A stretch of DNA of 34,669 nt from a virus. The notes beneath the pieces were generated by a model. That model saw only the letters and a list, made by a program, of their open reading frames with translations, did not search any database and was not told the DNA's origin. The position numbers and the translations under genes are program-made. The stretch lies in UHGV virus genome UHGV-0090561. One strand, 5' to 3'. This document shows positions 6,612-30,022 of this stretch, one piece after another; the first letter of the stretch is position 1; each line of letters begins with the position of its first letter.

Positions 6612-7402
6612 TTACGCCAGTTGTACGGACACGAACTCATCAGGGTCAGCCAGCAGCATCAGCGGTGCTGACTGAATCATGGTGAACTCACGCGCAGGAT
6701 CGCCGGTGGTCACCCAGTTTTTCGGGTAACGGGCAGAGGCGTTAATGCCTTCGCGCTGTGCGTCCGCATCCTGAATGCAGCCATAGGTGCGCAGACCGCG
6801 TGCCTGAGTGTTCCCCAGCACCATCGTGTTGTCCGGCAGGAAGTTCTTTTTGACGCCGTTTTCCACGTACTGCCCGGAATACACGACGATGGCCACATCG
6901 CCATACATCCCCTTATAGGACACCGCTTTACCCAGGTCTTTCACCGCTGTCTCCAGCTCGGAATGAGAGCCGCGACGGGTATCCAGCTTCTCCTTGACGG
7001 CTTTGAAGGAACGGAACAGCGCCCAGCCTTTCGGATCAAACACGATGATATTCACTACACCGCTGGCGTTCAGCGCGTAGGCTTCGATATCGTCGGTCGG
7101 GTCATACGTGGACTTGTCACGCTTGCTCCACTCCGTGCCACCGGACTGTGTGATGTTGTTCGCCGCACTGCGGCCCATATCCACCTCAACCGGATCGAAG
7201 GCTTCACCGGTCATGGTGTATTTGCCCTTAAGCACGGCAGAAACTGCCTGCATCTCTTCGACCTGGGCAATGGCCAGCTCTTCGTCACGCATGTTCTGCA
7301 TGATGATGCGACGGCGACGGTAAGCCGGGTCCGCCAGATTCTGTGGATCTTCATCCGGCAGGCGACGCAGGGTCATCTGCGGATTCACCTCATGCTTGGG
7401 CT
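6612..7402 (-). pseudogene. E: Major capsid protein E, 3' fragment (codons from PKHEVNPQ to end), separated from its 5' part by the insertion
   Basis: Translation ...PKHEVNPQMTLRRLPDEDPQNLADPAYRRRR...VSVQLA matches the C-terminal ~260 aa of lambda gpE; no start codon, and a TAG lies immediately upstream at the junction. Confidence 0.93.
7393..7402. repeat. Left copy of 10-bp direct repeat TGCTTGGGCT (putative att core / target duplication)
   Basis: Identical 10-mer at 18591-18600; both copies lie inside E coding sequence (AAG CCC AAG CA on the coding strand). Confidence 0.8.
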
Positions 7403-8440
7403 ACATGAGTCAATGACGTAAGTATGTGAATGATATAAGAGGAAAAATAGAGCATAATCTCTACCAGAATGACTATGTTGCAATACATGCTGCAATACAC
7501 AGAAATGAATTTACATGCTGTTCGATTATTAAGTTTCATAGCCGAGTTGCAGATCAGCAACTCACCCACCAGCCCAGATAATTTCATTTTCACACTGGAG
7601 GACTCCTTGAAATCAAGGAATCATAATCCTGCCATGTCATCATTCCGGCCTTCTCAGATTTGAGGTGTGCGGAAAAAATAAACGCTATTAAGCAGCTATG
7701 TGGGTACTGCACTTTTTGGGTAGTGCAACTATCCAGCTTCCTCAAATTAAGGATTGTGGAAAAATCAATGAGTCAGGTTTATTCCCCCGTTCTCCCCCAA
7801 TGGGGGTTTTCGAAAGAATCAATGGGTTAGGCCATCGTGCAAATTTGCACTCTGCCAGCCAACGCAATTTTGCGTTATCAGTCCTCAGATGTGAGGGATG
7901 TAGCCAGCTTTTCCCCCAGTGGGGATTATCCAGTTACCGACGGTTTAACCGCCTGTGCCAGCACAACGAAAGAATTTGCGGGTAGCTTTAAACTACTCAC
8001 AACATCCCATCTTACAGGCCGTGCCTTTCTAACTTTTTACAATGCAATAAGTCAGGTAACGCTATGCGTTCCACCGTGTACACCGCGCCAGTAAAACCCC
8101 CGGATTCGTGGTTTTCCTGAATATCAGGAATCTACCGCCGTAACCGCTCCTGCTTCTTCCACTGGTAAGTGTTTTTCGCGCTCTCCCTTCGCTACATGGA
8201 ACGGCGACGATATGGCAACAACTCCAGAACTCTGGTGCGTATGTTGCACATATCCACGCCGTTAAGCTCGATACCGTCACGGCGCATAACCTCAAGCACC
8301 ACACGCGCGTAATTTTCAGCGGTCGTGCTGTCCGACTGCGTTGTCTCCTGTTTGCCTGCTGCCTGATAGATATCACTGGAAACGTGCCGGATAAGTTCCA
8401 GCAGCAGAAAGGCGAGTTGCTACCGCGCAATTGTTGAACA

Positions 8441-8647
8441 AAAAACGAGAAAGGAAACGACACTGTCCAAAAAACACGTTTTCAGCACCTGCTGTTTCCT
8501 TTCTTTTTAGGGGGTATTTATAATAAAAACATTAAGTTACGGCAAAGAAGAACGGAAACGCCTTAAACCGGAAAATTTTCATAAATAGCGAAAACCCGCG
8601 CGCCTTCCGCCCCGTAACGCTCCGGATCACCGGAAAGGACCCGCTCA
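8441..8647. other. cos site of the satellite (cosN/cosB-like), near-identical to the prophage cos
   Basis: About 200 bp aligns almost base-for-base with 24798-25000, including the inverted GAAAGGAAACGAC / CGTTTCCTTTC terminase R-site-like repeats and the segment GCGAAAACCCGCGCGCCTTCCGCCCCGTAACG. Confidence 0.75.
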
Positions 8648-8730
8648 AAAAAAGCGGCCACTGACGTGATTGTTTATGTTCCATGAGCGACAAAACCGCC
8701 CGGAGGCGGTTTCACATAAAACATTTTGCA

Positions 8731-9378
8731 TCAGCGACCAATCACCACAACCTGACCACCATCACCTTCATCTGCCGTGCTGATCTCCTGAGATACCACT
8801 CGCGACCCCACACGCATTTCACCGTACAGAACGGGCAGAACATTGCCCTGGGCAACCATGTTATCCAGTGACGAGAAATACGTGTTCTGCTTACCGTTAT
8901 CCGTTGTCTGTGTGCGGGGAGTTCTGGCTTTCGGTGCCAGCATCTGCGCCACACCACCGAGCACCATACTGGCACCCGCACTATACATTCCTGTAATTGC
9001 TGCCGCTCCTAGCCAACCAGCGGGGTTCCACCACGCCACCGCAATCAGCGCCGCCCCCAGCACGGTCTGAAACACACCGCCACTTTTAGCGCCAGCAAGA
9101 CGCGGTACGATGTGGATCACAGCACCATTCGCCAGCGGCTCATTAAGACGGGCTGATAATTCATTTTCGCCTGCATCCCGCCCGGCAATCCGTACCTGAT
9201 ACCAACCGTCGCTCAGTTTCTGACGAAACGACGGTAGCTGTGTGGACAGAGCTCGGATGGCTTCAGCCCCCGTTTTTACACGAAGGTCGATGCGGTGGCC
9301 GAATCGTTGCAAATCCCCGTAAAGGCAGATTCGTGCCATGCCCGATGACGCCAGAGGGAGTGTGTGCGTCGTTGCCAT
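8731..9378 (-). CDS. Tail assembly protein I-like protein (lambda gpI family)
   Basis: 215-aa ORF MATTHTLPLASSGMARICLYGDLQRFG...QGNVLPVLYGEMRVGSRVVSQEISTADEGDGGQVVVIGR resembles lambda gpI as I recall it (N and C termini conserved, middle divergent); Shine-Dalgarno upstream. Confidence 0.65.
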   Translation of the reverse strand: MATTHTLPLASSGMARICLYGDLQRFGHRIDLRVKTGAEAIRALSTQLPSFRQKLSDGWYQVRIAGRDAGENELSARLNEPLANGAVIHIVPRLAGAKSGGVFQTVLGAALIAVAWWNPAGWLGAAAITGMYSAGASMVLGGVAQMLAPKARTPRTQTTDNGKQNTYFSSLDNMVAQGNVLPVLYGEMRVGSRVVSQEISTADEGDGGQVVVIGR

Positions 9379-9418
9379 TTGTCGGTATACCTCTCTCGTT
9401 TGCTCTGTTGTTCAGAAA

Positions 9419-9802
9419 TTAGCAGATCAACTTATAGCGTCCATTCCGAGCATTGCGGCGTACACGTTCAATCTTGAGGCATAGCGCCGCATCTGGCTTT
9501 TTTGGGACTGGTACACGGCAATATTCAGAAGCGCGAGGAATATTATTTATCCAGTCAATCACTTCGCTTAAATACCAGGCCTTACGCCCTTCCGTAACCT
9601 GCACACGCTCCGGGAACTCTCCACGGGCCTCAAGGTTTAGCAGTGTACGACGACTCAGGGTTGTAAGTTCCATTACCTGATTCATATCAACAAGACGCTC
9701 GCTTAAACGCATTTTGTCAGCGATAGCTTTTAATTCCTCTACAGCTGGATTTGGGTACATAATTTCGGCAATTGGCTTAAGGTCATTGTAATGATTCTGC
9801 AT
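9419..9802 (-). CDS. AlpA-like helix-turn-helix protein with N-terminal extension
   Basis: 127-aa ORF with GGGGGA Shine-Dalgarno; C-terminal half TTLSRRTLLNLEARGEFPERVQVTEGRKAWYLSEVIDWI resembles the AlpA/excisionase-type HTH. Confidence 0.6.
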   Translation of the reverse strand: MQNHYNDLKPIAEIMYPNPAVEELKAIADKMRLSERLVDMNQVMELTTLSRRTLLNLEARGEFPERVQVTEGRKAWYLSEVIDWINNIPRASEYCRVPVPKKPDAALCLKIERVRRNARNGRYKLIC

Positions 9803-9813
9803 TGTATCCCCCT

Positions 9814-10155
9814 TTACACACGAGCCAGCGGCTGAACAGAAATACCTGAGCCAACAAACGCTGCAACCTTTACTGACAGTTCTTTTACAGACTCAGGCCA
9901 GTTCAGAGCATCAACATTTAAGACACCTGTCTTATAGACCTGAGCCTGTGTTTTTTTCGCGGTGTCGATTTGTACAGCGGATACATAAACCGCTTTACCT
10001 ACGCTCGTACCATCCCATACCACCAGTGCACCTGTTGCATCTTCCTGCATCAGTGGCGTAAATGCAGGAATTACCCCTTTATTAGCTGAAAATATCCCCA
10101 GCGTAGTAACCAGTGCTTCAGTGCCAGCCATGAGTTCAGTGTAATGAGTAGCCAT
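9814..10155 (-). CDS. Head decoration protein, lambda gpD family (divergent)
   Basis: 113 aa; aligns by eye with lambda gpD (FTPLMQEDATGALVVWDGTSVG vs [22 protein letters not shown]; AFVGSGISV vs [10 protein letters not shown]); strong Shine-Dalgarno AAGGGGGAG. Confidence 0.7.
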   Translation of the reverse strand: MATHYTELMAGTEALVTTLGIFSANKGVIPAFTPLMQEDATGALVVWDGTSVGKAVYVSAVQIDTAKKTQAQVYKTGVLNVDALNWPESVKELSVKVAAFVGSGISVQPLARV

Positions 10156-10164
10156 TGCTCCCCC

Positions 10165-11205
10165 TTAGCCAATGCGAACGGTAACAAAACGATTGATGCG
10201 AGCCGGTATTGGCTGTGGTGCTGAATGTGTCTGCACATATTCAATAGCCGGATCACCAGGCACAATATAGTTTTTCGGTGCAAGTTCGGCTTTAGTCAGC
10301 CCCATTCGGATTAGCTCCGGGTCCTGAATACCGCCATAGGCGACAATCCCCTGAAGAGCCGTATTGCCAAGCACCATCAAATCAGGATCAAGGAAATGTT
10401 TTTCAGTTCCGTCCTCGTCGGTATAACGCCCGCTGTAAACAACAATCGCAACATCGCCCATATACCCTTTAAAACTCACCGAATCACCAAGGTCTTTAAG
10501 GGCCGTTTCCAGTTCGGAATTAGAACCACGACGGGTATCCAGAGCCTCTTTTATCGCTCTGAATGAACGGTATTTCTTCCATACATTACCGCCCATAATG
10601 ATGATATTAGTGACGCCCTCACTAAATTCTGCGTAGTTCTCAATATCATCATTTGGATCAAAAGTTTCTTTATCCTTACCTGACCACTCAGCACCGCCAG
10701 ACTGAGTGATGATATTTTGTGGTTTAATATTCCAGTCCAGCTCATAACGTTCAATACCATCGCCCTCAATGATATTTTTCCCCGTTGTGATTGCCTGAAC
10801 GGCAAGCCATTCAATACGTGCACGAATAGCTTTAGCTTGATTTACAATCGCCTGTTTAACTTTAATATTACGCGCCCCAAAAGCATTGTATTGCTCAGGT
10901 GATACACCAGCAGGGCGCACAGCTAACTTATTTGGATCAATGCTGCTTTTCGGCTTCATATAGCCTGGACGAATTGTTTTTGATTCGTACCCTTCGTCAC
11001 GTGAAACTTTACTACCCACCATAGGAGAACAAAACGCTGCAATTGGGATATTTGGATCGTCGATTGTATCAAGAATAATATCGCGCGATTCAAACATTAC
11101 CGAGCGAGTAAAAAACAAACGGGTAAACAACGCATTTAGTTGTTTTTGTACATCTACAGCATTAACCACCTGTACAAGCTGGGTAGGCGAATATAAATCA
11201 ACCAT
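10165..11205 (-). CDS. Major capsid protein, lambda gpE family (divergent satellite copy)
   Basis: About 346 aa from the ATG with AAGAGG Shine-Dalgarno; central block NIITQSGGAEWSGKDKETFDPNDDIENYA...AIKEALDTRRGSNSELETALKDLG...GDVAIVVYSG is clearly homologous to lambda gpE but far more diverged than the prophage copy. Confidence 0.85.
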   Translation of the reverse strand: MVDLYSPTQLVQVVNAVDVQKQLNALFTRLFFTRSVMFESRDIILDTIDDPNIPIAAFCSPMVGSKVSRDEGYESKTIRPGYMKPKSSIDPNKLAVRPAGVSPEQYNAFGARNIKVKQAIVNQAKAIRARIEWLAVQAITTGKNIIEGDGIERYELDWNIKPQNIITQSGGAEWSGKDKETFDPNDDIENYAEFSEGVTNIIIMGGNVWKKYRSFRAIKEALDTRRGSNSELETALKDLGDSVSFKGYMGDVAIVVYSGRYTDEDGTEKHFLDPDLMVLGNTALQGIVAYGGIQDPELIRMGLTKAELAPKNYIVPGDPAIEYVQTHSAPQPIPARINRFVTVRIG

Positions 11206-11422
11206 ACGCATCCTCTTTGCATTCATTAAAAATAATTGTGGATATATGCTATCACCGATATTTGTCATGCGAATACATGCAACCGAGTGCAATGTTGTAT
11301 AAAGTTTTGGGATGACAACTTCAGCGCGGATAATTAGTGTTAATATCTTCACTCCCTTTGGTCGGGATTTATGTAGCATGCCGGAAAATTTATTTTTTTC
11401 CGGCCTTTTTTATTGGCAATAT

Positions 11423-11872
11423 TTAAAACGGAATATCATCTCCCCATTGCTCATTATCTCCCACTGGTGGATGGCTTCCTTGCTGATCTGCCTGTTGTTT
11501 TGCTCTGTTCAGTGCGTCAGTAGCCTGCCCCTGTTGGCCTTTTTTGCCGCCCGGTCGCACCGTTCGCGCACTGATTACGCTGTCTGCGATAACCTGCCAG
11601 CCCTGCCGCGTTTCACCGTTCTGTCCAGTCCACTGACTCACCTGCATGTTACCCGCCACGCTCAGGAGTTCGCCTTTGTGATGCTTTGCCAGCGCGTCGG
11701 CTTGTCTGCCAAACGCCAGAACAGATAACCACATCGTCGCCTGACCGTCATCCGACTGGCTGCAGGGCAGTGATACCGCCATACGCGCCAGCGTCATGGG
11801 GGTGCCCTTGCTGGTCTGTTTTGTCTGCGGGGCGTCCACCAGCCGCCCGTAAGCTGCTATTTGCGCCGTCAT
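11423..11872 (-). CDS. ssb: Single-stranded DNA-binding protein
   Basis: 149-aa ORF with OB-fold-like N-terminus, Gly/Gln-rich linker and the characteristic acidic tail ending DDIPF. Confidence 0.85.
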   Translation of the reverse strand: MTAQIAAYGRLVDAPQTKQTSKGTPMTLARMAVSLPCSQSDDGQATMWLSVLAFGRQADALAKHHKGELLSVAGNMQVSQWTGQNGETRQGWQVIADSVISARTVRPGGKKGQQGQATDALNRAKQQADQQGSHPPVGDNEQWGDDIPF

Positions 11873-12126
11873 GCTGCCTGCTCTCCGGACTTAATATTGA
11901 TGGTTGTCACTTCCTCCGCTTCGGCAATCTCCCGTTCGGTCAGCGTGGCAAAGTTTGCAGCCGCCGTTGTCATGAATGCGCTTATCAGTTCGGGATGTGC
12001 TTTCGCGTATCCTTCCCCGGCGTTGCGGTCTATTGCCTTAATCGCCACCCTTAGCCAGTGTTCAGCCATATCAAGGGCGCGGTAATGTGGCTTTATATGT
12101 TTGTTCAGTTTTCCTGATGTGTGCAT
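11869..12126 (-). CDS. Hypothetical protein (satellite, between ori and ssb)
   Basis: 85-aa ORF whose stop overlaps the ssb start (operon-like); no recognisable family. Confidence 0.45.
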   Translation of the reverse strand: MHTSGKLNKHIKPHYRALDMAEHWLRVAIKAIDRNAGEGYAKAHPELISAFMTTAAANFATLTEREIAEAEEVTTINIKSGEQAA

Positions 12127-12169
12127 TTTTATTTTTACCCCCTCGTTTAAAAAGTTTTTTGTGCACCAC

Positions 12170-12404
12170 CACCTTGTCTACCTTGTCTACCTGATTAGTT
12201 ATCAGGCCAGTAATGGCGCGGGTTTCAGGGAGGTAGACAGCCCCAAATAGCTGTCTACCTCATCTCTACCCGTATCCTTACCTGTCTACAAAAATGGGTA
12301 GATAAGGTAGATAACAGGTAGACAGTGAAAAATAGTTATCTACCTGCATTAATACATTGAAATAAAAGTATTTTCTTTCAGTCAGGTAGACAAGGTAGAT
12401 AACC
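12170..12404. repeat. Iteron array (putative satellite replication origin)
   Basis: About 10 copies of GGTAGA(C/T)A / its reverse complement TGTCTACC in both orientations, immediately downstream of the primase-helicase gene. Confidence 0.8.
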
Positions 12405-12415
12405 ATTGCCATTTT

Positions 12416-14167
12416 TTATAAAAACGCATCGCAATCATCAGTAGTCGTTGCGTTGGTCTGCGTGACTCCCTTAACTTTTCGCGTAATATATTCATATCCG
12501 TAAACTTTCGCCGCTGACCTCATAGCCTTTCCGAACTCATTCACGCTCAAACATTTCCCCTTTCCTGTGTATGCCATGAAGGCCATATAGACACGGTAAA
12601 GGCTGTTTCTGGTCGTGTACTTCACGGAGTCACCACCACCGCCCATCATTAGCCCACGAGCTTCCTCCAGAAACTCAAGCGCCGCGCAAAGCTCAACAAC
12701 TGGATCCGTTTGCTGCTTTATTGCCAGAGCTTCATCACCGTCACGCTGTTCCAGTAGTAAAGCCCTTGCCTTTTCAGGGTCAGCAAAGTTAGCCAGCAAG
12801 CGGCGGATAATTACGGGGATTTCTGCCGCTATCTTTTCCGGTAATTCCTTGTCTTTTTCGTCCTCCCTTACAATGTTGTCGAACCGGAAAATCACCCGAC
12901 GGCGTGACACACCTCCGGCCCGTTCGGTAAAGATCATCGGGTCGTTATTGGTTGCCAGTACCACCGCCCTTATTATCGTCGTGAATCGCTTCTCATATTT
13001 CGGATTGATTTCAACGGGATCGCCTCCCGTGATTTTCTTGATGCCCGTGCCTTCCCCCGTATATTTCGGCTGATCGGCAAGGACGATAAGACGACTCCCG
13101 ACAACCTGCGCGCGCCCTCCTGCATCATCGAGTGATGTCATCTCTGCGCTTACGGTGTTCTGTTTGCCTGCAAGCAGGGTGGCAATATGGGTAAATGTAC
13201 TCTTACCGCTTCCCCCGTCTCCGGTGGCCTCAATGAACATCTGCCAGTCGTAGCGGTTCGCCATAATCATGTATAACGCGGCACATATACGCATCATCTT
13301 GCGCGGGTCTTTTCCTGCAGCATGTTCAAGCCATTTATGGAAATTTGGCGCATTATCGCGGATGTTTTCCCCTGCTACTGGTGGCGTGTACTCAATACCA
13401 TTGTGCGTGGTGCTCCAGTGCTCCGGCGAGTGCGGAGAAAATTCCCCCGTTTTCAGATTAAGCACACCATTAGTGAACGGTAGCAAATCACCGGACGGCT
13501 CCCCCATGGGGGCTGCAATAACTTTTAACGCTTCCACGGCGTTATTGATTACACGTTTGCTGAACGTGGCCCTGTGCTCTGAATAGATCGCCACCATTTC
13601 GCGGCTCAGCTCCATTGTGCTGACCGGACACCATACCCCGCCGCGCCATACGTGGACGATTTCACTTTCTGCATGAACACACACACCATCAAAGCGATCG
13701 GCAAGTAGTTGTGCACGTTCACTGTCTGCCATCTGTGAAAGTTGCGCCTTTTGCTTCGTCGGAAGATTAAGCACCAGACTTTCCCCACGCTCGCATTCCT
13801 CTTTGAGTCGCGGCAACTGGTCGGATAAATCCACTGGGCTGGTGTCAGTAATCCCCGCGTATTCGTGTACGGTCTTCACTCCAGCCACAGCCAGTAACGT
13901 AACAATCTGCGTCATGCTGTGCTCTGTGATATGTCCTGCGCGGTAAACACGCACACACTGACGATCTTCATCAATGATCCGGTAATCGGTGATATTTTTC
14001 AGTTGCTCATCAGCCAGCACGACAGGCGGCACATCGTCGGCGGCAATATGTTTACCCGCCCATTCCTGCCACTCTTTCGCATGGCTCCACGCATCACTAC
14101 CTGCAAAGATGATTACCTCTGTCAGTCTGTCGCGTGGCTGTTTTTTTAAGTTCGGTGCCAGTTTCAT
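12416..14167 (-). CDS. Primase-helicase (P4-family primase C-terminal / SF3 helicase-like replication initiator)
   Basis: 583-aa ORF with Walker A GDGGSGKST and downstream NTPase-like motifs typical of P4 alpha-type / PICI Pri-Rep proteins; followed by iterons. Confidence 0.8.
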   Translation of the reverse strand: MKLAPNLKKQPRDRLTEVIIFAGSDAWSHAKEWQEWAGKHIAADDVPPVVLADEQLKNITDYRIIDEDRQCVRVYRAGHITEHSMTQIVTLLAVAGVKTVHEYAGITDTSPVDLSDQLPRLKEECERGESLVLNLPTKQKAQLSQMADSERAQLLADRFDGVCVHAESEIVHVWRGGVWCPVSTMELSREMVAIYSEHRATFSKRVINNAVEALKVIAAPMGEPSGDLLPFTNGVLNLKTGEFSPHSPEHWSTTHNGIEYTPPVAGENIRDNAPNFHKWLEHAAGKDPRKMMRICAALYMIMANRYDWQMFIEATGDGGSGKSTFTHIATLLAGKQNTVSAEMTSLDDAGGRAQVVGSRLIVLADQPKYTGEGTGIKKITGGDPVEINPKYEKRFTTIIRAVVLATNNDPMIFTERAGGVSRRRVIFRFDNIVREDEKDKELPEKIAAEIPVIIRRLLANFADPEKARALLLEQRDGDEALAIKQQTDPVVELCAALEFLEEARGLMMGGGGDSVKYTTRNSLYRVYMAFMAYTGKGKCLSVNEFGKAMRSAAKVYGYEYITRKVKGVTQTNATTTDDCDAFL

Positions 14168-14463
14168 TTTTTGCCCCTGAATGCGTTAATCATGCTTTTC
14201 ATTTTCTGGATGTTTCCCCGCGCTTTTTCCCTGCTGGTGGGCTTACTGCGGGGTGCGGCATATACCAGGGAAAAATCACGCCGGAACTGATAAACAGGCA
14301 TCACACAGTCATAGCTATACCCCTCACGGCGGTAAGTGATGCGCCGTTCTGCCACGCCTTTAATCGTTACCGTGCCGCCGTATTTATCGCGGTAAATATC
14401 GCCGTTCATAAATTCAGGCCGAGCGGGGCCGCTGGCAATAAAGCCAGAATTTTTCATTTCCAT
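14164..14463 (-). CDS. Hypothetical protein (upstream of primase, ATGA overlap)
   Basis: 99-aa ORF translationally coupled to the primase start; no recognised family. Confidence 0.5.
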   Translation of the reverse strand: MEMKNSGFIASGPARPEFMNGDIYRDKYGGTVTIKGVAERRITYRREGYSYDCVMPVYQFRRDFSLVYAAPRSKPTSREKARGNIQKMKSMINAFRGKK

Positions 14464-14480
14464 ATTATTTATTCTTCGAC

Positions 14481-14702
14481 TTAACTCGACTTATTTGATA
14501 GCAGGGCACTATTTATTGCGTCATTGAGTTTTTCTGCTGCTTCATCAATAAGTGACAACAGGCCATAAGCAATATTTGCATCTTCATTGTCATTTATGCA
14601 ATCAAGCCACATATTTAATATTGCTTTTGCTGAATTATTTAAAGTTAATGAACTCTCTGCACATGCTAACAATTTAAAAAAGACTTCCCGTTCTGTATTC
14701 AT
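14481..14702 (-). CDS. Hypothetical small protein
   Basis: 73-aa ORF in a tightly packed co-directional array; AT-rich. Confidence 0.4.
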   Translation of the reverse strand: MNTEREVFFKLLACAESSLTLNNSAKAILNMWLDCINDNEDANIAYGLLSLIDEAAEKLNDAINSALLSNKSS

Positions 14703-14894
14703 TTAATCCCCCACCAGCTTACTTTCTTCCTCAATCAGGAAACTAGCGACACTTCCCGAAAGGCGCGCCAGTAGGCTCGCCAGCGCGGATATATCAGCAT
14801 CTGTAATTTTGTTCGGGTATACCTCAAGAAGGCGGCAAATAATTTCTGTTTGGTGCGCACGTTCAGCGGCTTCGTGTAATGTGATTTCCTGCAT
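14703..14894 (-). CDS. Hypothetical small protein
   Basis: 63-aa ORF abutting its neighbours without gaps. Confidence 0.4.
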   Translation of the reverse strand: MQEITLHEAAERAHQTEIICRLLEVYPNKITDADISALASLLARLSGSVASFLIEEESKLVGD

Positions 14895-15079
14895 TAATGC
14901 ACCTCTTTTAATTCATACACTGCTGAAATAATGACTTGTGATAAGCCATATTCTGATGATTCGCTTCTCACCGCAGCAATAGCCGTCTGAACATTAACAG
15001 CCTTCACGTTCTGAGTGATACCAATTGTGTGGCCTCGTGGGTTAACAGCTCGGGCAAATACACGGAAGGTTTTAAGCAC
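14894..15079 (-). CDS. Hypothetical small protein
   Basis: 61-aa ORF overlapping its neighbours by a few nt. Confidence 0.4.
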   Translation of the reverse strand: MLKTFRVFARAVNPRGHTIGITQNVKAVNVQTAIAAVRSESSEYGLSQVIISAVYELKEVH

Positions 15080-15275
15080 GGCACACCTCCTGACGAATAC
15101 GGGCAGCGAATACCATCACGCAGCCAGTTGGGGATTGCTGGCGGGCTTCCTGTTCGCTGATGGCCTCGATGGTAATCATGCGCGGTTGTGCCGTACTCAA
15201 GGCGATAAAACGCCAGATGTATTTATTCAGGTTGTGCGAGTTCCGCCCTTGCGGGTGTGTGGTATGATTTCTCAT
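15072..15275 (-). CDS. Hypothetical small protein (first gene of the leftward satellite operon)
   Basis: About 67 aa from the internal ATG preceded by a GAGG Shine-Dalgarno; the upstream part of the track ORF is not supported. Confidence 0.4.
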   Translation of the reverse strand: MRNHTTHPQGRNSHNLNKYIWRFIALSTAQPRMITIEAISEQEARQQSPTGCVMVFAARIRQEVCRA

Positions 15276-15474
15276 AGCTACCTCGATACTGTTGCTATCG
15301 TTGGTGGTTAGAAGCCCGTTGGTGTTCCTAGCACCTTCGGGCTTTGCTTTTTTAAGTGCCCCCGTGTTAAGGTGGTCACCTAACAATGAAAAGGCTAATT
15401 CAATAGGTGGTCACTTGTCAACGATCAAACGCGATAAAAGTCCTAAGGGTGATGGGCAATCTCCACAATTCAGA

Positions 15475-15606
15475 ATGCGAATTTCTCCAGAGCTAAAAGA
15501 GCAATTCGACAAAGAAGCGCAGAGCGACGGCATAAGCCTAGCCAACTGGCTTAAAGAATTAGGGCGCAAAGAGCTGCTACGGCGCGGTATTGAACCAAAA
15601 GGATAA
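15475..15606 (+). CDS. Ribbon-helix-helix (Arc/CopG-like) DNA-binding protein, putative
   Basis: 43-aa product MRISPELKEQFDKEAQSDGISLANWLKELGRKELLRRGIEPKG fits the RHH pattern; weak Shine-Dalgarno, so the start is uncertain. Confidence 0.45.
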   Translation: MRISPELKEQFDKEAQSDGISLANWLKELGRKELLRRGIEPKG

Positions 15607-15633
15607 GAATAATTGAAGTCAAGGAGCTAACAC

Positions 15634-15990
15634 ATGAAATACGAATTCTTCGCAACAAGTAGCAGTAGTTTGGATGTATACATAGTCACTGTATCAAACG
15701 ATTCTGGCTCGCTAATCATGACTTGTAATTGTCCAGCAGGAAGTAAAGGTATTCTATGTAGACACCGTAAAGCTTTAATTACCGGAAAAATCCGCGGTAT
15801 ATTCACTCCCCCAAGAAGGAATAATCCTGAAAAATTACAAGAAGCTATAAATTTAATAGCCACATATGGCATAGATAAAACATTAAAGTTGTACACTGAT
15901 GAGTTAGAACGAGCAGAACAGACTTGGATAAGTGTTCGCGATAATTTGAGAGCAATGATAAACGCTCTTGTTGAACCACCTAAATATTGA
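15634..15990 (+). CDS. SWIM zinc-finger protein, small
   Basis: 118-aa ORF with AAGGAG Shine-Dalgarno; motif CNCPAGSKGILCRH matches the SWIM CxCxnCxH signature; followed by an intrinsic terminator. Confidence 0.7.
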   Translation: MKYEFFATSSSSLDVYIVTVSNDSGSLIMTCNCPAGSKGILCRHRKALITGKIRGIFTPPRRNNPEKLQEAINLIATYGIDKTLKLYTDELERAEQTWISVRDNLRAMINALVEPPKY

Positions 15991-16056
15991 ACTGTTCACA
16001 TTGCCTATCAGGCGATAACCTCGTATTCTGATTAAGGCTAACTATATACTCACATT

Positions 16057-16080
16057 GGCGACCAATTCTGGTCGCCTTTA
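16057..16080 (+). terminator. Rho-independent terminator after the SWIM gene
   Basis: GGCGACCA-attc-TGGTCGCC hairpin followed by TTTA; position hand-counted. Confidence 0.6.
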
Positions 16081-16121
16081 TCCACCATTTTTATAATATC
16101 ATAGATTAAAAGTGTTAATCC

Positions 16122-16952
16122 TTACCCCCTGAATGGAATTGATGAGGATTTAATTTCCACAGAACTAAATCCTCTTGAATCCAAGAACATTTTTATACCA
16201 GCCTCAATAAAATCATAATCGTTTGTCGGGCCAATTGTAATGCTTTTAATTGGTAACTTTCTATTATCTTTATTATCAATGATGATATAAGGGATGATCC
16301 CATTATTATTTATTCTGAAGTGCACATCTGGCATTTGCATCCACGGAGTAAATACCAATCTAAATTCATTCTCTTCGATAAAACTAGGATGTTTAAAAAA
16401 TGGGATGTATTTAGATATAAATTGATACGTAGAGACCATTGTTACAAAATGATCATTCATTTCTTTAATATTAATACCATTACAAGAAAAAAACTCCCCC
16501 AACTCCTTACTCATCTTAGTAATATCGTTATTATTTGAATATATAACATCATGTGCAACACAATTTAAATAAATATTTTGAGAAAAGCTCACAAGTTCAT
16601 CCGCATCAAACTCAATGCAAACACCCTGTTTATTTCCGTAACCTCTCCACTGACTTAACTTATCGTTTTCCTTACAAAAAGAGATGCTATAAACATGTTT
16701 ATCAATCCCTTTTTCTTTTTGTAACCTCCCTTTCTCATACATGTCAAGAGACTTGAGCAAAATAGTTTTCTTATCTTTTGGAATGATATTATCATCAACT
16801 ATTTTAATTGTATTTCGAAAGCATTCACATCCATGGTTAGACTCCTCTTTATCATTTAAGAAATATATGTTTGTAGCCCATAAAGAATTAGAGTCTAATA
16901 TACCTTTCAAACCAAAAAGATCTGTATAATGAAATATAGCCACAATGCCCAC
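16122..16952 (-). CDS. DUF2971-like protein (satellite cargo, function unknown)
   Basis: 276-aa ORF, markedly AT-rich versus its neighbours; N-terminal FHYTD...YFLNDKEE resembles the DUF2971 motif as I recall it (not verified by HMM); GTG start 7 nt after the alpA stop. Confidence 0.55.
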   Translation of the reverse strand: MGIVAIFHYTDLFGLKGILDSNSLWATNIYFLNDKEESNHGCECFRNTIKIVDDNIIPKDKKTILLKSLDMYEKGRLQKEKGIDKHVYSISFCKENDKLSQWRGYGNKQGVCIEFDADELVSFSQNIYLNCVAHDVIYSNNNDITKMSKELGEFFSCNGINIKEMNDHFVTMVSTYQFISKYIPFFKHPSFIEENEFRLVFTPWMQMPDVHFRINNNGIIPYIIIDNKDNRKLPIKSITIGPTNDYDFIEAGIKMFLDSRGFSSVEIKSSSIPFRG

Positions 16953-16959
16953 CTAATAG

Positions 16960-17190
16960 TTAAGTTGTTTCCCACTCACCTCGAATCCATGCCTGCACTT
17001 CTGAAAGACGATATGCAACAGCAGTGGAACCAATCTTGATCCGCTTAGGAAATTTTCCTTCCTTCTCCAGCTTCCAGCGTGTGCTGTTCGCAAGAGTGGT
17101 TAGCTCCCGACATTCTTTCTCACGGATCATTCGGTCAATGTTAGGAATGTACTCCAGACCCTTTTTATCAACAATTGCCATTTTTTTCAT
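16960..17190 (-). CDS. alpA: AlpA-family transcriptional regulator / excisionase-like protein
   Basis: 76-aa ORF immediately downstream of int; ...RELTTLANSTRWKLEKEGKFPKRIKIGSTAVAYRLSEVQAWI is the AlpA HTH pattern. Confidence 0.8.
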   Translation of the reverse strand: MKKMAIVDKKGLEYIPNIDRMIREKECRELTTLANSTRWKLEKEGKFPKRIKIGSTAVAYRLSEVQAWIRGEWETT

Positions 17191-17191
17191 G

Positions 17192-18427
17192 CTAACCAGC
17201 CTTTTGTTTGAGGATTGTCACTTTTGAATCAGCAGCTGCGATGCTATTGAGATATGTAGTCCAGAGTTCCAGAGCATCCAGTTTTTTAGCCATAAACTTA
17301 CTCCGGTTGTAAACACCTGCCACGCCAGGTAGCGCATGGCCTAACAGTTGTTCTACTACATAAAATTCAACACCGAGATCACTTAGATGAGTAGATAGCG
17401 TTCTTCTAAGGTCGTGTAGTGACCATTGTTTTTCATGGCCCAAACGTTTACCGATTTTCCCCCCAATCTTGCTTACGCTTTCTCTAATTCGCAGACTTCC
17501 CAGCACATAACCAGTATGTTTTGTCTCTTCGTGAACATCCGTTACCCACTGTCGTAGAATTTCAGGTACTGGTCTGACGATTTCAACACCAGTTTTTGAG
17601 TGATCTTTTGGCACAGTCCAAACCCAACTTTCGAGATCCCATTCGCTCCATTCTGATAATCGGGCTTCACTCATTCGACATCCAAATACTGTACAAAGCA
17701 CAAACATTTTTCGCGTGTATTCAGACATTAGTTTTAAATCAGGCTCGACAAAAATTGCCTTCCAGAGCTGGCCCAGTTCGGCTTCATCCAGAACCCGATC
17801 CCGCTTACCTGCAATCTGCCCCACATCACTCATGCGCAAATCCTTTAAAGCATCACACGTCGCGTACTGGCGTACCCGACAAAAACGAAGAGCTAATTTA
17901 GTGTCAGAAAAAACATACGCCGCCATAACTGGTGCATTACGTTTAATTCGGTCAAAACAGTCCAGCCATTCATATAGGTGAGTGTCATTTACGGGCAAAT
18001 GACCGATATAGGGAAAGATATGCTTTCGAAATCTGCCAAGCGTTACAGCATGAGTTTTACGACGCACCTTACAGTAATTTTCATACCAGTAATTTAGTGC
18101 ATCCTCCACTGTGACCGGCTTTAAGCGTTCTTCAGCCTGAATCTTAATCTGGATACGCGGATCACGTTTGTCAGCCAACCAAGCACGGCACTCGTCGCGC
18201 TTTTCCCTTGCCTGTTTGAGTGACATATCAGGATATTTACCCAACGTTAGCCAGACCGGAGCAGCCCGGCCACCTGCTAACCTGTAGAAGAAAACAAAGC
18301 TCACAGCCCCCTTGGTACTCACACGAATAGAAAGCCCCTTTCCATCAGCAATGGTGATCTGCTTTTCTCTGGGTTTCCCCAGATATCCTTTAAGTGCTTT
18401 GTCGCTCAGTTTGTTCTCGCCAGCCAT
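17192..18427 (-). CDS. int: Tyrosine recombinase (phage integrase family)
   Basis: About 411 aa from the internal ATG (MAGENKLSDK...); C-terminal catalytic region with HDLRRT...LLGH...Y-type motifs; adjacent to the right junction and direct repeat. Confidence 0.88.
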   Translation of the reverse strand: MAGENKLSDKALKGYLGKPREKQITIADGKGLSIRVSTKGAVSFVFFYRLAGGRAAPVWLTLGKYPDMSLKQAREKRDECRAWLADKRDPRIQIKIQAEERLKPVTVEDALNYWYENYCKVRRKTHAVTLGRFRKHIFPYIGHLPVNDTHLYEWLDCFDRIKRNAPVMAAYVFSDTKLALRFCRVRQYATCDALKDLRMSDVGQIAGKRDRVLDEAELGQLWKAIFVEPDLKLMSEYTRKMFVLCTVFGCRMSEARLSEWSEWDLESWVWTVPKDHSKTGVEIVRPVPEILRQWVTDVHEETKHTGYVLGSLRIRESVSKIGGKIGKRLGHEKQWSLHDLRRTLSTHLSDLGVEFYVVEQLLGHALPGVAGVYNRSKFMAKKLDALELWTTYLNSIAAADSKVTILKQKAG

Positions 18428-18589
18428 TTTTAGCCCCAAAAAGCAATACAAGCTGCAATACAGAGATGATTGCAACACACAGATAACGAGGAAAATCCAG
18501 TGAAAGCGCCAGATAAACTTATTCTTTATTATCAAAAGATTAAGTGTAAAAACCAGCAACTACACGAAAGCCTCAGAAAGCCATGCTAA

Positions 18590-18835
18590 GTGCTTGGGCT
18601 TGACATATCCCGGTGTAAATTCAGAGGTGGAGCCGCCACGGGAGCGGATAACCTCACCGGAAACAATCGGCGAAACGTACAGCGCCATGTTTACCAGTCC
18701 CGGAATTTGTGAGAGATAGACTTTCTCCGTGGTGAAGGGATAGCTCTCACGGAAAAAGAGACGCAGAAACAGCGGATCAAACTTAAATTTCTTCTCATTT
18801 GCCGCCAGCAGCTGGGCGGTTGTGTACATCGACAT
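18590..18835 (-). pseudogene. E: Major capsid protein E, 5' fragment (first ~81 codons), reading into the insertion
   Basis: MSMYTTAQLLAANEKKFKFDPLFLRLFFRESYPFTTEKVYLSQIPGLVNMALYVSPIVSGEVIRSRGGSTSEFTPGYVKPKH matches the lambda gpE N-terminus, then diverges (LAWLSEAFV, stop) at the junction. Confidence 0.93.
18591..18600. repeat. Right copy of 10-bp direct repeat TGCTTGGGCT
   Basis: Identical to 7393-7402; lies at the codons KPKH of E. Confidence 0.8.
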
Positions 18836-18890
18836 AAAAAAATCCCGTAAAAAAAGCCGCACAGGCGGCCTTTAGTGATGAAGGGTAAGG

Positions 18891-19223
18891 TTAAACGATG
18901 CTGATTGCCGTTCCGGCAAACGCGGTCCGTTTTTTCGTCTCGTCGCTGGCAGCCTCCGGCCAGAGCACATCCTCATAACGGAACGTGCCGGACTTGTAGA
19001 ACGTCAGCGTGGTGCTGGTCTGGTCAGCATCAACCGCAAGAATGCCAATGGCAGCACCGTCGGTGGTGCCATCCCACGCAACCAGCTTACGGGTGGAGGT
19101 ATCCAGCATCAGCGGGGTCATTGCAGGCGCTTTCGCACTCAATCCGCCGGGCGCGGTTGCCGTATGTGCCGGGTCACTGTTGCCCAGCGGCTGGTAATGG
19201 GTAAAGGTTTCTTTGCTCGTCAT
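18891..19223 (-). CDS. D: Head decoration protein D
   Basis: From the ATG after a TAAGGGA Shine-Dalgarno: [41 protein letters not shown]... matches lambda gpD. Confidence 0.95.
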
Positions 19224-19232
19224 AAACATCCC

Positions 19233-19838
19233 TTACACTGGTGTGTTCAACAAATCGTTAACGGCATCAGATGCCGGGTTACCTGCAGCCAGCGGTGCCG
19301 GTGCCCCCTGCATCAAACGATCCAGCGCAGTGTCACTGCGCGCCTGTGCACTCTGTGGTGCAGCTGCCAAAATGCGGCGGGCCGTTTCCACGGTCATACC
19401 GGGGGTTTCGGCCAGCACGCGTGCCTGTTCTTCGCGTCCGTGAGCCTCCTCACAGTTGAGGATCCCCATAATGCGACTGTTTTCTGCCGCAACCGCTGCG
19501 GTGATCTGCGCGTTCACGTCCGGCTGCGCAGCGCTGGCGTTCTCGCCCTCCGTCGCTTGCACCACGCCAGTAACGTCAGCCTGCGAAGCAGTGGCTGAAA
19601 CAGTTGTTGATTGAGTCTCTTTGGTCATTCGCCCTCCTGAGAGACGGGATTTACGTGCATCCAGTGCATCACGCATAACGGTGATCGCATCGGTGCTGTT
19701 AACAAGTTCATCAGCCAGTCCGGCATCAATGGCCTCCTGACCGCTGTACACTGCAGCCTCGGTATCCAGCACAGCCTGCACGGACAGGCCGGTATATGCC
19801 GACACTTTCTGCGCAAACATCTGGCGGGTTGCATCCAT
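19233..19838 (-). CDS. Nu3: Scaffolding protein Nu3 (in-frame internal start within C)
   Basis: Internal ATG (MDATRQMFAQKVSAYTG...) gives the C-terminal 201 codons of C, the lambda Nu3 arrangement. Confidence 0.8.
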   Translation of the reverse strand: MDATRQMFAQKVSAYTGLSVQAVLDTEAAVYSGQEAIDAGLADELVNSTDAITVMRDALDARKSRLSGGRMTKETQSTTVSATASQADVTGVVQATEGENASAAQPDVNAQITAAVAAENSRIMGILNCEEAHGREEQARVLAETPGMTVETARRILAAAPQSAQARSDTALDRLMQGAPAPLAAGNPASDAVNDLLNTPV

Positions 19839-20532
19839 CCGGGACTGCAGTGTTTCCCGGACGTCATCCGGAAGATGGCTGTAGGGGTTGCCATCCACCT
19901 TATGGCTGCCGCTGTAAATCAGCGTGATTTCCACACCCTGTTTCTCCAGCGCAGCACCGTAATTACTGTGAGCCATCATGACGCCGATGGAGCCTGTCCG
20001 GGCGGTCTGCGTGACCAGACGTCGGGAGGCGGCGCTGGCAAGCAGTTGACCTGCACTGCAGTTCATGTCGTTGGCCAGCGCCCATACCGGCTTTATGTCA
20101 CGCACACGGGCGATGATGTCAGCGCAGTCAAATGCTCCCGCCACCATTCCGCCTGGCGTGTCCATATCGAGCAGAATGCCGTCCACCATCGGGTCGCTGG
20201 CAGCCTGTTGCAGACGGGCGATAATGCCGTTGTAACCGGTCATCCCCGAGTACGGCTGCAGCGCCCGCGTCCGGCTGACCAGCGTGCCGGACACCGGCAG
20301 CACGGCGATGCCGTTCATGACCTGATAACTGCGGGCCTGTCGTGGTCCGTCATCATCACCGGATAATGCCAGCGTCGCGAGTGCCTCCTGGGCAGTCAGG
20401 CTGTCGCCGGACACCGCATCCGTCAGGCGGCTGATCCCAAGCTGGCCTGCAAGCGCACAAAAGAAAACCCGCGCATAGGCGGGTTCAAGCATCAGCGGCT
20501 CATTAAAGGCCATGCTGGCAATATGCGGGAGA

Positions 20533-20552
<20 letters not shown>
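19233..20552 (-). CDS. C: Head maturation protease / scaffold C
   Basis: From a GTG start with AGGAGGA Shine-Dalgarno: (V)TAELRNLPHIASMAFNEPLMLEPAYARVFF... matches lambda gpC. Confidence 0.92.
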
Positions 20553-24233
<3,681 letters not shown>

Positions 24234-24259
<26 letters not shown>

Positions 24260-24779
24260 TCAGCAACCCCGGTATCAGTTCATCCAGCGCGGCTGCTTTG
24301 TTCATGGCTTTGATGATATCCCGTTTCAGGAAATCAACATGTCGGTTTTCCAGTTCCGGAAAACGCCGCTGCACCGACAGGGGGATCCCGTCGAGAATAC
24401 TGGCAATTTCACCTGCGATCCGCGACAGCACGAAAGTACAGAATGCGGTTTCCACCACTTCAGCGGAGTCTCTGGCATTCTTCAGCTCCTGTGCGTCGGC
24501 CTGCGCACGCGTAAGTCGATGGCGTTCGTACTCAATAGTCCCTGGCTGCAGATCTGTCTCGCTGGCCTGCCGCAGTTCTTCAACCTCCCGGCGCAGCTTT
24601 TCGTTCTCAATTTCAGCATCCCTTTCGGCATACCATTTTATGACGGTGGCAGAGTCATAAAGCACCTCATTACCCTTCCCACCGCCTCGCAGAACGGGCA
24701 TTCCCTGCTCCTGCCAGTTCTGAATGGTACGGATACTCGCACCGAAAATGTCAGCCAGCTGCTTTTTGTTGACTTCCAT
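24234..24779 (-). CDS. Nu1: Terminase small subunit Nu1
   Basis: 181-aa ORF MEVNKKQLADIFGASIRTIQNWQEQGMPVLRGGGKGNEVLYDSA... matches lambda gpNu1; adjacent to cos. Confidence 0.96.
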
Positions 24780-24797
24780 TGTTCATTCCACGGACAA

Positions 24798-25000
24798 AAA
24801 CAGAGAAAGGAAACGACAGAGGCCAAAAAGCCCGTTTTCAGCACCTGTCGTTTCCTTTCTTTTCAGAGGGTGTTTTAAATAAAAACATTAAGTTACGGCG
24901 AAGAAGAACGGAAACGCCTTAAACCGGAAAATTTTCATAAATAGCGAAAACCCGCGCGCCTTCCGCCCCGTAACGTTCTGGATCGCCGGAAAGGACCCGA
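24798..25000. other. Prophage cos region (cosB R-site-like repeats and cosN-like segment)
   Basis: Reverse complement resembles the lambda left-end region (AAACGACAGGTG.../CGTTTCCTTTCT... R sites, IHF-like AT-rich stretch), but the cosN-equivalent differs from lambda GGGCGGCGACCT; duplicated at 8441-8647. Confidence 0.75.
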
Positions 25001-28307: not shown

Positions 28308-29111
28308 ATGACAGAAAAAGATAACATTGGTAAGTTAATTTGGCATATTGCTTGCGATGAATCTGGCATTGATGGGCAACGTTTCTACGGCTTTGGCAGT
28401 CTGTGGATGAAGTACCAACGCCGTGGGGATTTCTGTCAACTAATCAGAGAACTACGCAGCAAACATGGTTTTTTTGAAGAAATAAAATGGCAAAAAGCCC
28501 ATTCAAAAAGATACTCTGAATTTTATCTTGAGCTGATCGACTTATTCTTTAGAGTTCCTTGGCTAGCTTTTCATTGTATCGTGGTTGAAAAATCAATAGT
28601 AAACAAGGCATTTCATAATGGGGATTATGACCTGGCAAGGAGAAAGCACTTCACAAATCTCATTACCACAAAAATTAGCTCTGTAATTTCTGCACACCCT
28701 GAAAGAGACAGTTACTTCAGGATTGAAGTTGATCCTATCGCATCTCGTTATAAAAAGGCCGATGAAGAACTAAATGTTATTGCCAATAACATATTGAATA
28801 GAAAATTTGGTCGTAAAGGGATAATCAGCAGTGTAGTGACAAAAGACTCTAAAGCATCTGAAAACATTCAGCTAGCCGATTTTTTCTTAGGTGCGGTTAT
28901 GTGCGCATATCAAGGAAAAGCTTCATCTGAAGCCAAAATAAGAGTATCAAACTATGTTGCTTCATATTTAGGCTGGGATCATTTGCAATATGATACATGG
29001 CACACTGAGAGAAAATTTAATATCTGGTATTTTTATGATAAAACTCGAGGGCCACGAGATATAGAAACTCAAAATGTTAGCTTAAAGTATCCACTTCCCC
29101 AAAAGAAATAG
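28308..29111 (+). CDS. DUF3800-like protein (accessory gene between Q and S, antisense to late transcription)
   Basis: 267-aa ORF in a markedly AT-rich island; N-terminal HIACDESG and C-terminal IQLADFFLGAV resemble the DUF3800 motifs as I recall them (not HMM-verified). Confidence 0.55.
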   Translation: MTEKDNIGKLIWHIACDESGIDGQRFYGFGSLWMKYQRRGDFCQLIRELRSKHGFFEEIKWQKAHSKRYSEFYLELIDLFFRVPWLAFHCIVVEKSIVNKAFHNGDYDLARRKHFTNLITTKISSVISAHPERDSYFRIEVDPIASRYKKADEELNVIANNILNRKFGRKGIISSVVTKDSKASENIQLADFFLGAVMCAYQGKASSEAKIRVSNYVASYLGWDHLQYDTWHTERKFNIWYFYDKTRGPRDIETQNVSLKYPLPQKK

Positions 29112-29332: not shown

Positions 29333-30022
29333 TCAATCCAGTTTTGCAATACTTTGCTGTGAAAATGTCGTCTTTTGTTTTGAACGTGTTCTCGTTACAA
29401 GCAATAAAGCTTCGCTATCAAGCTGTAGAAAAATGTGCTTCATTGCAACCCAGCGTTCAGTAAATGTCTCAGACCAGTTTTTTGATGTCACTCCCACCAG
29501 TGATGCCAGCTCCTGGTATTCATAGGTCTTACGCCCTGCCAGCTCGTTCTTCACATCCTGTGCCGCCAGCCAGATCAACTTCTTCAAACGTTCCAGTGTC
29601 TTACCTGCAATTTTTCTGGTACCCAACAGAGTCTTAAACTCGCTCCATGCCCACTGAGTTATGGCAACCTGATGCTCCCAGCGAACACTTTCGCTGTAAC
29701 TCCACAGCAACCACGCTTTCTGATGTTCATCAAGAGACAGAACCGCGCGGCGCCATGAAGAGGTTGAGAACTCAACCTGGCTGACCAGTGCAATGGATGA
29801 ACCTTTTGCGTACGACTGCTTACCGGAAATCGGCGGATTATCCAGCGTAATCATCCTGCCAGTTACCTCATCCAGAATGCTCGGCTTCTTTCGTTTGTAT
29901 GTACCAGTATCAAATTGAGCATGCTCCAGCCAGGCTTCAAGCTGGCCTTTCGTTACTCCGCTCAAATCAGCGGTAGCCACCATGAGTTGCTCGCGAACAT
30001 ACTGTAAATATTGGGTATTCAT
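29333..30022 (-). CDS. Putative late-gene antiterminator Q (non-lambda Q family)
   Basis: 229-aa ORF between rusA and the lysis cassette, where Q sits in lambdoid phages; resembles phage-82-type Q proteins as I recall them; not lambda Q. Confidence 0.5.
   Translation of the reverse strand: MNTQYLQYVREQLMVATADLSGVTKGQLEAWLEHAQFDTGTYKRKKPSILDEVTGRMITLDNPPISGKQSYAKGSSIALVSQVEFSTSSWRRAVLSLDEHQKAWLLWSYSESVRWEHQVAITQWAWSEFKTLLGTRKIAGKTLERLKKLIWLAAQDVKNELAGRKTYEYQELASLVGVTSKNWSETFTERWVAMKHIFLQLDSEALLLVTRTRSKQKTTFSQQSIAKLD

Follow-up and report, generated by a model that had tools for sequence, protein, structure and literature searches.

[quoted passage not shown] The analysis follows up an earlier note, which had been made from the letters of the window alone (the whole 34,669-nucleotide stretch of UHGV virus genome UHGV-0090561) and had described a satellite with divergent shell proteins of its own. 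The observation was confirmed, the interpretation drawn from it was partly supported, and both the configuration and the gene pair proved to be already published. What is added here for the pair is the strength of the selection acting on it, its satellite-only lineage, and its presence in PICIs outside gene E. The interest of the finding lies in the role of a widespread, selected, satellite-only capsid/decoration pair without a known phenotype. Helper-embedded elements provide a natural test system for this role, with helper gene E broken until the satellite excises.

A satellite inserted in the major capsid gene of its helper

The window covers a lambda-like late operon, with nearly all relevant genes on the minus strand. 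An 11,198-bp element of the int-alpA-primase-cos type is inserted in helper gene E, which it splits after codon ~81, between the residues KPKH and EV. The element is bounded by the 10-bp direct repeat TGCTTGGGCT (plus strand). Rejoined across the insertion, helper E encodes 341 aa and differs from lambda gpE (PDB 7VI9) at 4 of 341 positions. As the earlier note had stated, the element lies inside helper E, so that during integration of the satellite the composite has no intact major capsid gene other than the E-like one. The helper has the gene order of lambda, D then E, and continues beyond the E 3' fragment with FI, FII, Z, U, V, G, T, and H in that order. Satellite and helper late operon run in the same direction, and the satellite lies downstream of Q. 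An RNA gene as integration target was rejected, as tRNA/tmRNA and Rfam scans of the window were empty and the target is gene E. The features of the satellite and its helper are as follows.

6612-7392, minus strand: helper E, C-terminal fragment (EVNPQ... to the stop codon)
7393-7402: attachment-site core TGCTTGGGCT at the satellite end adjoining the helper E 3' fragment
7403-8437: 3' accessory region, ~1 kb
8438-8643, minus strand: satellite cos site
8731-9378, minus strand: captured late gene for tail assembly, lambda I-like
~9276-9419: putative K' fragment, positioned using the offset to RM14723 as annotated in RefSeq
9419-9802, minus strand: AlpA-family HTH protein, 127 aa, third gene of a packed E-D-HTH cluster
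9814-10155, minus strand: D-like head decoration gene, 113 aa
10165-11205, minus strand: E-like major capsid gene, 346 aa
11423-11872, minus strand: SSB gene of the replication zone (Pfam SSB, 5e-15)
12416-14167, minus strand: D5-type primase/helicase (D5_N, DUF5906, and Pox_D5 in the Pfam search)
14164-15386, minus strand: DUF4222 gene plus several small ORFs conserved in satellites, one of them Icd-like (label taken from the RefSeq annotation of relatives)
between these small ORFs and the DUF2971 gene, plus strand: HicB-like gene and SWIM-domain gene
16122-16952, minus strand: DUF2971 cargo gene in the 5' accessory slot (Pfam search)
16960-17190, minus strand: alpA (Pfam Phage_AlpA, 3e-15)
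17192-18427, minus strand: tyrosine integrase, intact (profile search)
18591-18600: attachment-site core TGCTTGGGCT at the integrase end
18601-18835, minus strand: helper E, N-terminal fragment (MSMYTT...GYVKPKH), first ~81 codons
18891-19223, minus strand: helper D, differing from lambda gpD (PDB 7VII) at 4 of 110 positions
19233-20666, minus strand: helper C
20533-22134, minus strand: helper portal gene B
22334-24259, minus strand: helper A, followed by W
24234-24779, minus strand: helper Nu1
29333-30022: Q antiterminator of the helper late region, with a holin and an Rz1-like lysis gene alongside

A further small conserved ORF lies between the primase and SSB genes. Among the element ORFs, no portal, terminase, protease, or scaffold family was matched in searches against Pfam and PHROG profiles, in agreement with the earlier note, which had reported neither portal nor terminase. 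The profile searches identified the E-like, D-like, and I-like genes as the only late genes present in the element, and no family beyond those tabulated matched any of its ORFs.

The E-like and D-like proteins

The predicted E-like protein matches Pfam Phage_cap_E (E=2.6e-41) over residues 12-343, corresponding to profile positions 4-327 of 329, as well as the PHROG 'major head protein' (1.4e-89) and lambda gpE (PDB 7VI9, 8e-77), with PDB 3BQW as its best structural match (6e-121). The D-like protein matches Pfam HDPD (lambda head decoration protein D, 4e-15), the PHROG 'head decoration' (7e-26), and the decoration-protein entry PDB 1TD0 (6.5e-16). Homology of both ORFs to lambda E and D, as claimed earlier, is upheld by these profile matches, and so is the claim that the satellite copies are far more diverged than the near-lambda copies of the prophage. 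The E-like protein shares 42.8% identity with helper E and the D-like protein 40.4% with helper D, vs. the four differences from lambda found in each helper protein. The divergence is unevenly distributed along the E-like protein, with 25-32% identity to helper E per alignment segment in the N-terminal half and 50-80% at residues ~160-280. Its fold is already fixed by the 55%-identical crystal structure 3BQW, together with the cryo-EM structures of lambda.

Within the element, the E-like gene precedes the D-like gene with a 9-nt spacer, and this order is the reverse of that in lambda and the helper, as had been noticed from the letters alone. Strong Shine-Dalgarno sequences are found at all three genes of the cluster, namely AGAGGA 5 nt upstream of the ATG of the E-like gene, GGGGGAG for the D-like gene, and AGGGGGA for the HTH gene, which follows the D-like stop codon after an 11-nt spacer. 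A promoter and terminator scan around the module yielded matches at or below the shuffle expectation.

Relationship to 11capE and other Gram-negative PICIs

Judged by its sequence, the element at 7393-18600 is an HE-PICI of the published 11capE type with a different cargo. Eco567.11capE of E. coli NRG857c was described by Tommasini, Mageeney and Williams (2023, NAR Genom Bioinform, PMC10111431) as an 11-kb PICI that sits in prophage 50icd, where it disrupts the lambda-E-like capsid gene. Its att identity block spans 10 bp. The element also brings a capsid gene from the same family as the interrupted one; the att-equivalent region of this satellite gene is too different for self-integration. 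With its helper, 11capE shares a 258-bp cos segment of 90% identity. The authors reported 201 further instances at the same E site and demonstrated excision of 11capE, while plaques were not detectable in their hands (PMC10111431). The element type, its integration in E, its own capsid gene, and the shared cos are thus known since 2023.

The assignment of the window element to the 11capE group is based on the match of integrase, junctions, architecture, and E/D module to NRG857c. The integrases are 99.3% identical and the E/D modules 99.1%. In prophage gene E the two elements occupy the same attachment site, whose core is 10 bp long, and their satellite arms are identical; the 11capE junctions differ by one SNP in the core. 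Both are ~11 kb in size and have the common gene order int-alpA-cargo-primase-SSB-E-D-HTH-cos. In the window, too, the att-equivalent position in the satellite's own E-like gene diverges (ATGAAGCCGAAAAGCA vs. GTCAAGCCCAAGCA). The integrase is 99.0-99.5% identical to those of three E-site elements, including NRG857c, vs. 53% for a portal-site element and 42-45% for chromosomal PICIs. Both the insertion site and the close integrase match place the element in the HE-PICI E:Phage_cap_E site group. The whole element at 100% coverage was absent from the complete E. coli genomes searched, the closest of which cover 84% of it at 98.4-98.6% identity.

The features of Gram-negative PICIs are also found in a broader sense. 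With 11,198 bp, the element falls into the 10-20 kb class, and it encodes an integrase at its end with a co-oriented alpA, its own primase/replication module (primase at 12416-14167, SSB at 11423-11872), a helper-type cos site, and an incomplete set of structural genes. The E-like and D-like genes represent the capsid and decoration module usual in these islands, i.e. the c1499/c1500 type, as indicated by the E-then-D order and by a closer similarity to PICI than to phage copies. This type is named after the capsid protein (c1499) and the head decoration protein (c1500) encoded by EcCICFT073, the model PICI of Gram-negative bacteria (Fillol-Salom et al. 2018, PMC6092414), and the c1499 protein is the one in crystal structure PDB 3BQW. 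The pairs of EcCICFT073 and the window are 55% (c1499/E-like) and 54% (c1500/D-like) identical, and in both elements the adjacent E-then-D pair lies downstream of the replication genes, with cos beyond it; EcCICFT073 is chromosomal, whereas the window element is embedded in its helper. A capsid gene is present in 21 of the 29 reference Gram-negative PICIs, and transfer does not need it (PMC10111431). The earlier note had taken the shell pair to set the element apart from P4-type satellites and capsid-forming PICIs (cf-PICIs); as a difference from known satellites in general this view has to be given up, because classical Gram-negative PICIs carry the same module (PMC6092414, PMC10111431). The capsid/decoration pair of E. 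coli PICIs was already described and knocked out in 2018, and we found no later functional work on c1499/c1500, 3BQW, or HE-PICIs in the literature beyond the 2018, 2019, and 2023 papers.

Selection, distribution, and lineage of the pair

Both genes are under strong purifying selection. Nei-Gojobori estimates for six E. coli copies (the window, RM14723, NRG857c, strain 190693, DS26-1, and APEC O2-211) gave dN/dS values of 0.05-0.10 for the E-like gene, with dS ranging from 0.1 to 1.3, and of 0.07-0.18 for the D-like gene in pairs with enough substitutions. The module is also widespread, occurring in 395 of 5,426 complete E. coli genomes (~7%; megablast, at least 80% coverage). In a spread sample of 21 full-length matches, all were listed as capsid and decoration genes and 20 were annotated as intact, the remaining copy (AST85) being annotated as frameshifted.

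That the two genes are decaying, functionless relics of a captured head module is exceedingly improbable. The frameshifted copy in AST85 would fit such decay, as would the lack of a phenotype in EcCICFT073 (PMC6092414), but the low dN/dS of the E-like gene, maintained over dS values of up to 1.3, largely refutes this reading, and the ORFs are intact in nearly all copies, with conserved Shine-Dalgarno sequences. The earlier note had named pseudogene relics as an outcome that would overturn its reading, and the dN/dS of the E-like gene speaks for the opposite.

The pair represents an old, satellite-specific lineage of gpE/gpD homologues, since the best tblastn matches among 50,697 phage records reach only 42% identity for the E-like protein (to lambda itself) and 41% for the D-like protein. 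PICI copies of the pair are 55-100% identical. The pair is neither a recent capture from the helper nor a relic.

The distribution of the module also bears on the idea that it serves as a backup copy, raised by Tommasini et al. (PMC10111431). In this scenario, the E-like gene, together with the D-like gene, would replace the broken helper E and allow head formation before or without excision of the satellite. It is indeed the sole intact major capsid gene in the composite, and read-through expression is plausible given that the satellite points the same way as the late genes of the helper. However, APEC O2-211 contains the module at 96-97% nucleotide identity in a PICI that resides in a prophage portal gene and leaves E intact, and chromosomally inserted PICIs have the module as well; the broken E therefore does not account for the module's retention, which weakens the backup idea. 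Moreover, the pair long predates the habit of integrating in E, as the CFT073 pair is 55% identical, and with 43% identity to helper E the E-like protein may not fit helper D, scaffold, and portal. We consider a backup function unlikely.

Packaging of the satellite

Over 206 bp, the satellite cos site (8438-8643) shares 91% identity with its prophage counterpart (24794-24999), which is located directly upstream of Nu1, and the cosN-like stretch and its neighbouring sequence are identical in the two copies; the cos site proposed earlier is thus confirmed. In EcCICFT073, RppA (c1503) redirects the helper TerS to a diverged cos (PMC6739421). The window element differs from this Rpp-type arrangement with its diverged cosB in that its cos is helper-like. 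No Rpp homologue was found when the HTH protein at 9419-9802 was compared with the two CFT073 proteins encoded downstream of c1500. The HTH protein was consequently rejected as an Rpp candidate; it has no similarity to this CFT073 pair and matches Pfam Phage_AlpA (1.3e-8) and an AlpA-family structure, PDB 8C3T (1.6e-10).

By analogy with relatives in the literature, among them EcCICFT073, for which a helper phage was shown to bring about induction, excision, and transfer at high frequency (PMC6092414), we infer that the composite would excise and replicate upon induction. The satellite would then excise, which would restore helper E. Transcription of the helper late operon may read into the embedded satellite, and the E-like and D-like proteins would be made and functional as an accessory shell pair. 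The helper terminase would recognise the helper-like satellite cos and package satellite concatemers. Heads would be built on helper portal, protease, and scaffold, the E-like/D-like pair entering or forming lambda-type shells alongside helper gpE and gpD, and helper tails would be added subsequently. Four element genomes amount to 44.8 kb, about the length of lambda DNA, which is compatible with the packaging of concatemers into full-size lambda-type heads as reported for EcCICFT073.

Possible roles of the capsid/decoration pair

Most probably, the E-like/D-like pair is an accessory to the shell that works beside helper gpE and gpD, and it is probably not a required or size-determining shell. 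The only direct experiments were made in EcCICFT073, in which deletion of c1499 or c1500 left island transfer and lambda interference unaltered (PMC6092414; PMC6739421) and did not restore lambda plaque formation (PMC6092414). As all packaged DNA was phage-sized (PMC6092414; PMC6739421), size redirection is ruled out for this island. By extension to the window element, these results argue against the earlier suggestion that the satellite supplies the shell, possibly for smaller capsids. It should be considered that they were obtained under laboratory conditions with intact helpers and a 55%-identical relative, so that a redundant or conditional role in the shell would have escaped detection. 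Strong selection on a capsid protein together with its decoration partner is also hard to reconcile with the lack of a structural function.

In the model drawn from the earlier note, E-like and D-like proteins build element-specific, possibly smaller capsids on the helper portal, scaffold, and protease, with the satellite DNA packaged inside. The two genes are intact and conserved together, purifying selection acts on both, and the E-like protein is a full-length gpE-type protein with a solved homologue (3BQW). Precedents exist in Ccm of SaPIbov5 (PMC8569155) and in the small heads of PmCI172 (PMC6092414). In contrast, the deletions in EcCICFT073 were without effect and its packaged DNA was phage-sized, a neat multiple of the element's length (11.2 kb), 44.8 kb, suits a full-size head, and no scaffold or size-determination gene was matched in the element. 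Although these points render the proposal rather unlikely, we retain it because a dedicated decoration partner has been co-conserved, which suggests separate lattice sites formed by the E-like protein.

There is a similarly small chance that, in the helper-embedded setting, the pair forms complete shells on the helper portal, scaffold, and protease, either full-size or with another T number. The selection on both partners and their satellite-specific lineage keep this possibility alive. If true, 11capE-type elements would be 'shell-only' capsid formers and stand between classical PICIs and cf-PICIs, and the null phenotype of EcCICFT073 would reflect redundancy with helper gpE and gpD.

Finally, the pair could have a non-structural role, acting as decoys or modulators, for example against capsid-sensing defence, or, towards lambdoid phages other than the helper, as poison subunits. 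Defence cargo is abundant in PICIs, and the absence of a transfer or lambda interference phenotype in EcCICFT073 (PMC6092414) despite strong selection would be in line with such functions. Yet neither protein was matched to a defence family in a PADLOC scan, deletion of c1499 or c1500 did not relieve lambda interference (PMC6092414), and the sequence features all fit an ordinary shell protein. We regard this role as quite improbable.

Comparison with other satellites

P4, likewise small and integrative, has a D5-type primase, is packaged through cos, and includes a function for capsid decoration (Sid/Psu); its external scaffold Sid acts on the capsid protein of the helper. To our knowledge, P4 lacks a homologue of the major capsid protein.

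Closer parallels to the accessory shell pair are found among satellites that encode capsid proteins. SaPIbov5 resembles the window element in being a cos-packaged satellite that encodes a homologue of the helper major capsid protein. This homologue, Ccm, redirects the size and shape of the helper capsid (PMC8569155), whereas no size redirection was seen in the E. coli PICI tested, EcCICFT073 (PMC6092414). Unlike the E-like protein, Ccm belongs to an unrelated protein family and has no decoration partner. PmCI172 is a PICI with a major capsid protein homologue, and small capsids are made (PMC6092414). The cf-PICIs encode all proteins for capsid production and packaging themselves and borrow only tails (bioRxiv 10.1101/2022.09.08.507074). 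The window element and the cf-PICIs share the encoding of their own HK97-fold capsid protein, but portal, protease, scaffold, connectors, TerS, and TerL were all absent from the window element in profile searches.

Cargo and late zone of the element

The element differs from 11capE mainly in its cargo, with a DUF2971 gene in the 5' slot and an I-like gene plus K' fragment before cos. The kilobase around the DUF2971 gene (16001-17000) has a GC content of 32%, and the encoded protein has only a weak PADLOC match (PDC-S31). In relatives, the 3' accessory slot holds Abi or DUF262+HEPN genes, the latter in NRG857c. This slot appears to be empty in the window element, where domain and defence profile searches of the region at 7403-8437 revealed no ORF with a recognisable domain.

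In many relatives, the interval from the HTH gene to cos contains a gene with the annotation of a terminase small subunit. In the window, this position is taken by the I-like gene (8731-9378) and the putative K' fragment, neither of which had been noticed in the earlier reading. Tail assembly inhibition (Tai) was considered as an explanation of the I-like gene and rejected, the Tai paper having no gpI-related content. The capture of the I-like gene and the K' fragment agrees with the "dynamic late zone" that Tommasini et al. described (PMC10111431). The I-like gene matches Pfam Lambda_tail_I (5.7e-24) and the PHROG tail assembly family (2.9e-84), and its product is 76% identical to gpI of the NRG857c helper.

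The capsid and decoration module in other genomes

Judged by nucleotide comparison, the divergence between the E-like and D-like genes of the satellite and those of the chromosomal PICI of E. coli 190693 is mosaic. When positions 9814-11205 of the window are compared with 10999-12390 of the 190693 locus, dS reaches 1.28 in the E-like capsid gene but only 0.24 in the D-like decoration gene, and nucleotide identity jumps near the boundary of the two genes from about 70-80% to 96-98%, a step that suggests recombination within the module. The module of E. coli RM14723 is 99.9% identical to that of the window. Its capsid and decoration genes are intact despite frameshifts in both the primase and the integrase genes of the same satellite copy (14603-16353 and 18821-20055 of the RM14723 locus). 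As read from its sequence, this satellite copy is probably immobile; in the same genome, an IS3 element interrupts the helper tail region.

Genes and signals flanking the module

The satellite of the window carries the following features on either side of the module:
8731-9378, full-length lambda I-like tail assembly gene, between the AlpA-family HTH gene and cos
about 9276-9419, K' fragment, placed by offset from the RM14723 annotation
11380-11404, hairpin with a 9-bp stem (GCCGGAAAA...TTTTCCGGC), immediately downstream of the SSB gene and ahead of the E-like gene

The I-like protein shares 76% identity with a helper-type gpI, and its gene thus looks like a captured late-gene fragment; in many relatives, the gene at this place bears the annotation terminase small subunit. 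An A-run lies on one side of the hairpin and a T-run on the other. Since the T-run follows the stem on the plus strand only, the hairpin may terminate antisense transcription rather than act as a boundary between SSB and the capsid module.

Accessory and candidate defence genes

Further genes lie in the satellite and in the helper prophage:
15292-15990, plus strand, HicB-like gene and SWIM zinc-finger gene
16122-16952, DUF2971 gene, in the 5' accessory slot of the satellite
28308-29111, DUF3800 gene, helper prophage, between the holin gene and Q (PADLOC PDC-M04A, 8e-35)
32100-32717 and 32714-33733, adjoining NADAR and PRTase-CE genes, helper prophage, upstream of the RusA gene (PADLOC PDC-M42C and PRTase_III-A)

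The last three are candidate defence genes of the helper. The DUF2971 gene, whose surrounding region has 32% GC and whose sole PADLOC match is weak (PDC-S31, 1.3e-4), is possibly defence cargo; accessory-slot genes in relatives encode TIR-domain, Abi, DUF262+HEPN or BRO-N proteins. No ORF with a family match was found at 7403-8437, the stretch of about 1 kb from cos to the attachment-site core. The counterpart 3' slot of relatives is occupied by Abi or DUF262+HEPN genes, and the stretch in the window is perhaps either a cargo slot that was emptied or has decayed, or non-coding DNA.

The HicB-like gene, so labelled from a weak Pfam match, and the SWIM zinc-finger gene (phrog_13130) are the only two on the plus strand of the satellite. 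They probably lie in the regulatory 'Bro zone', and relatives carry YlcI/YnfO-family or HicB-family genes at this position.
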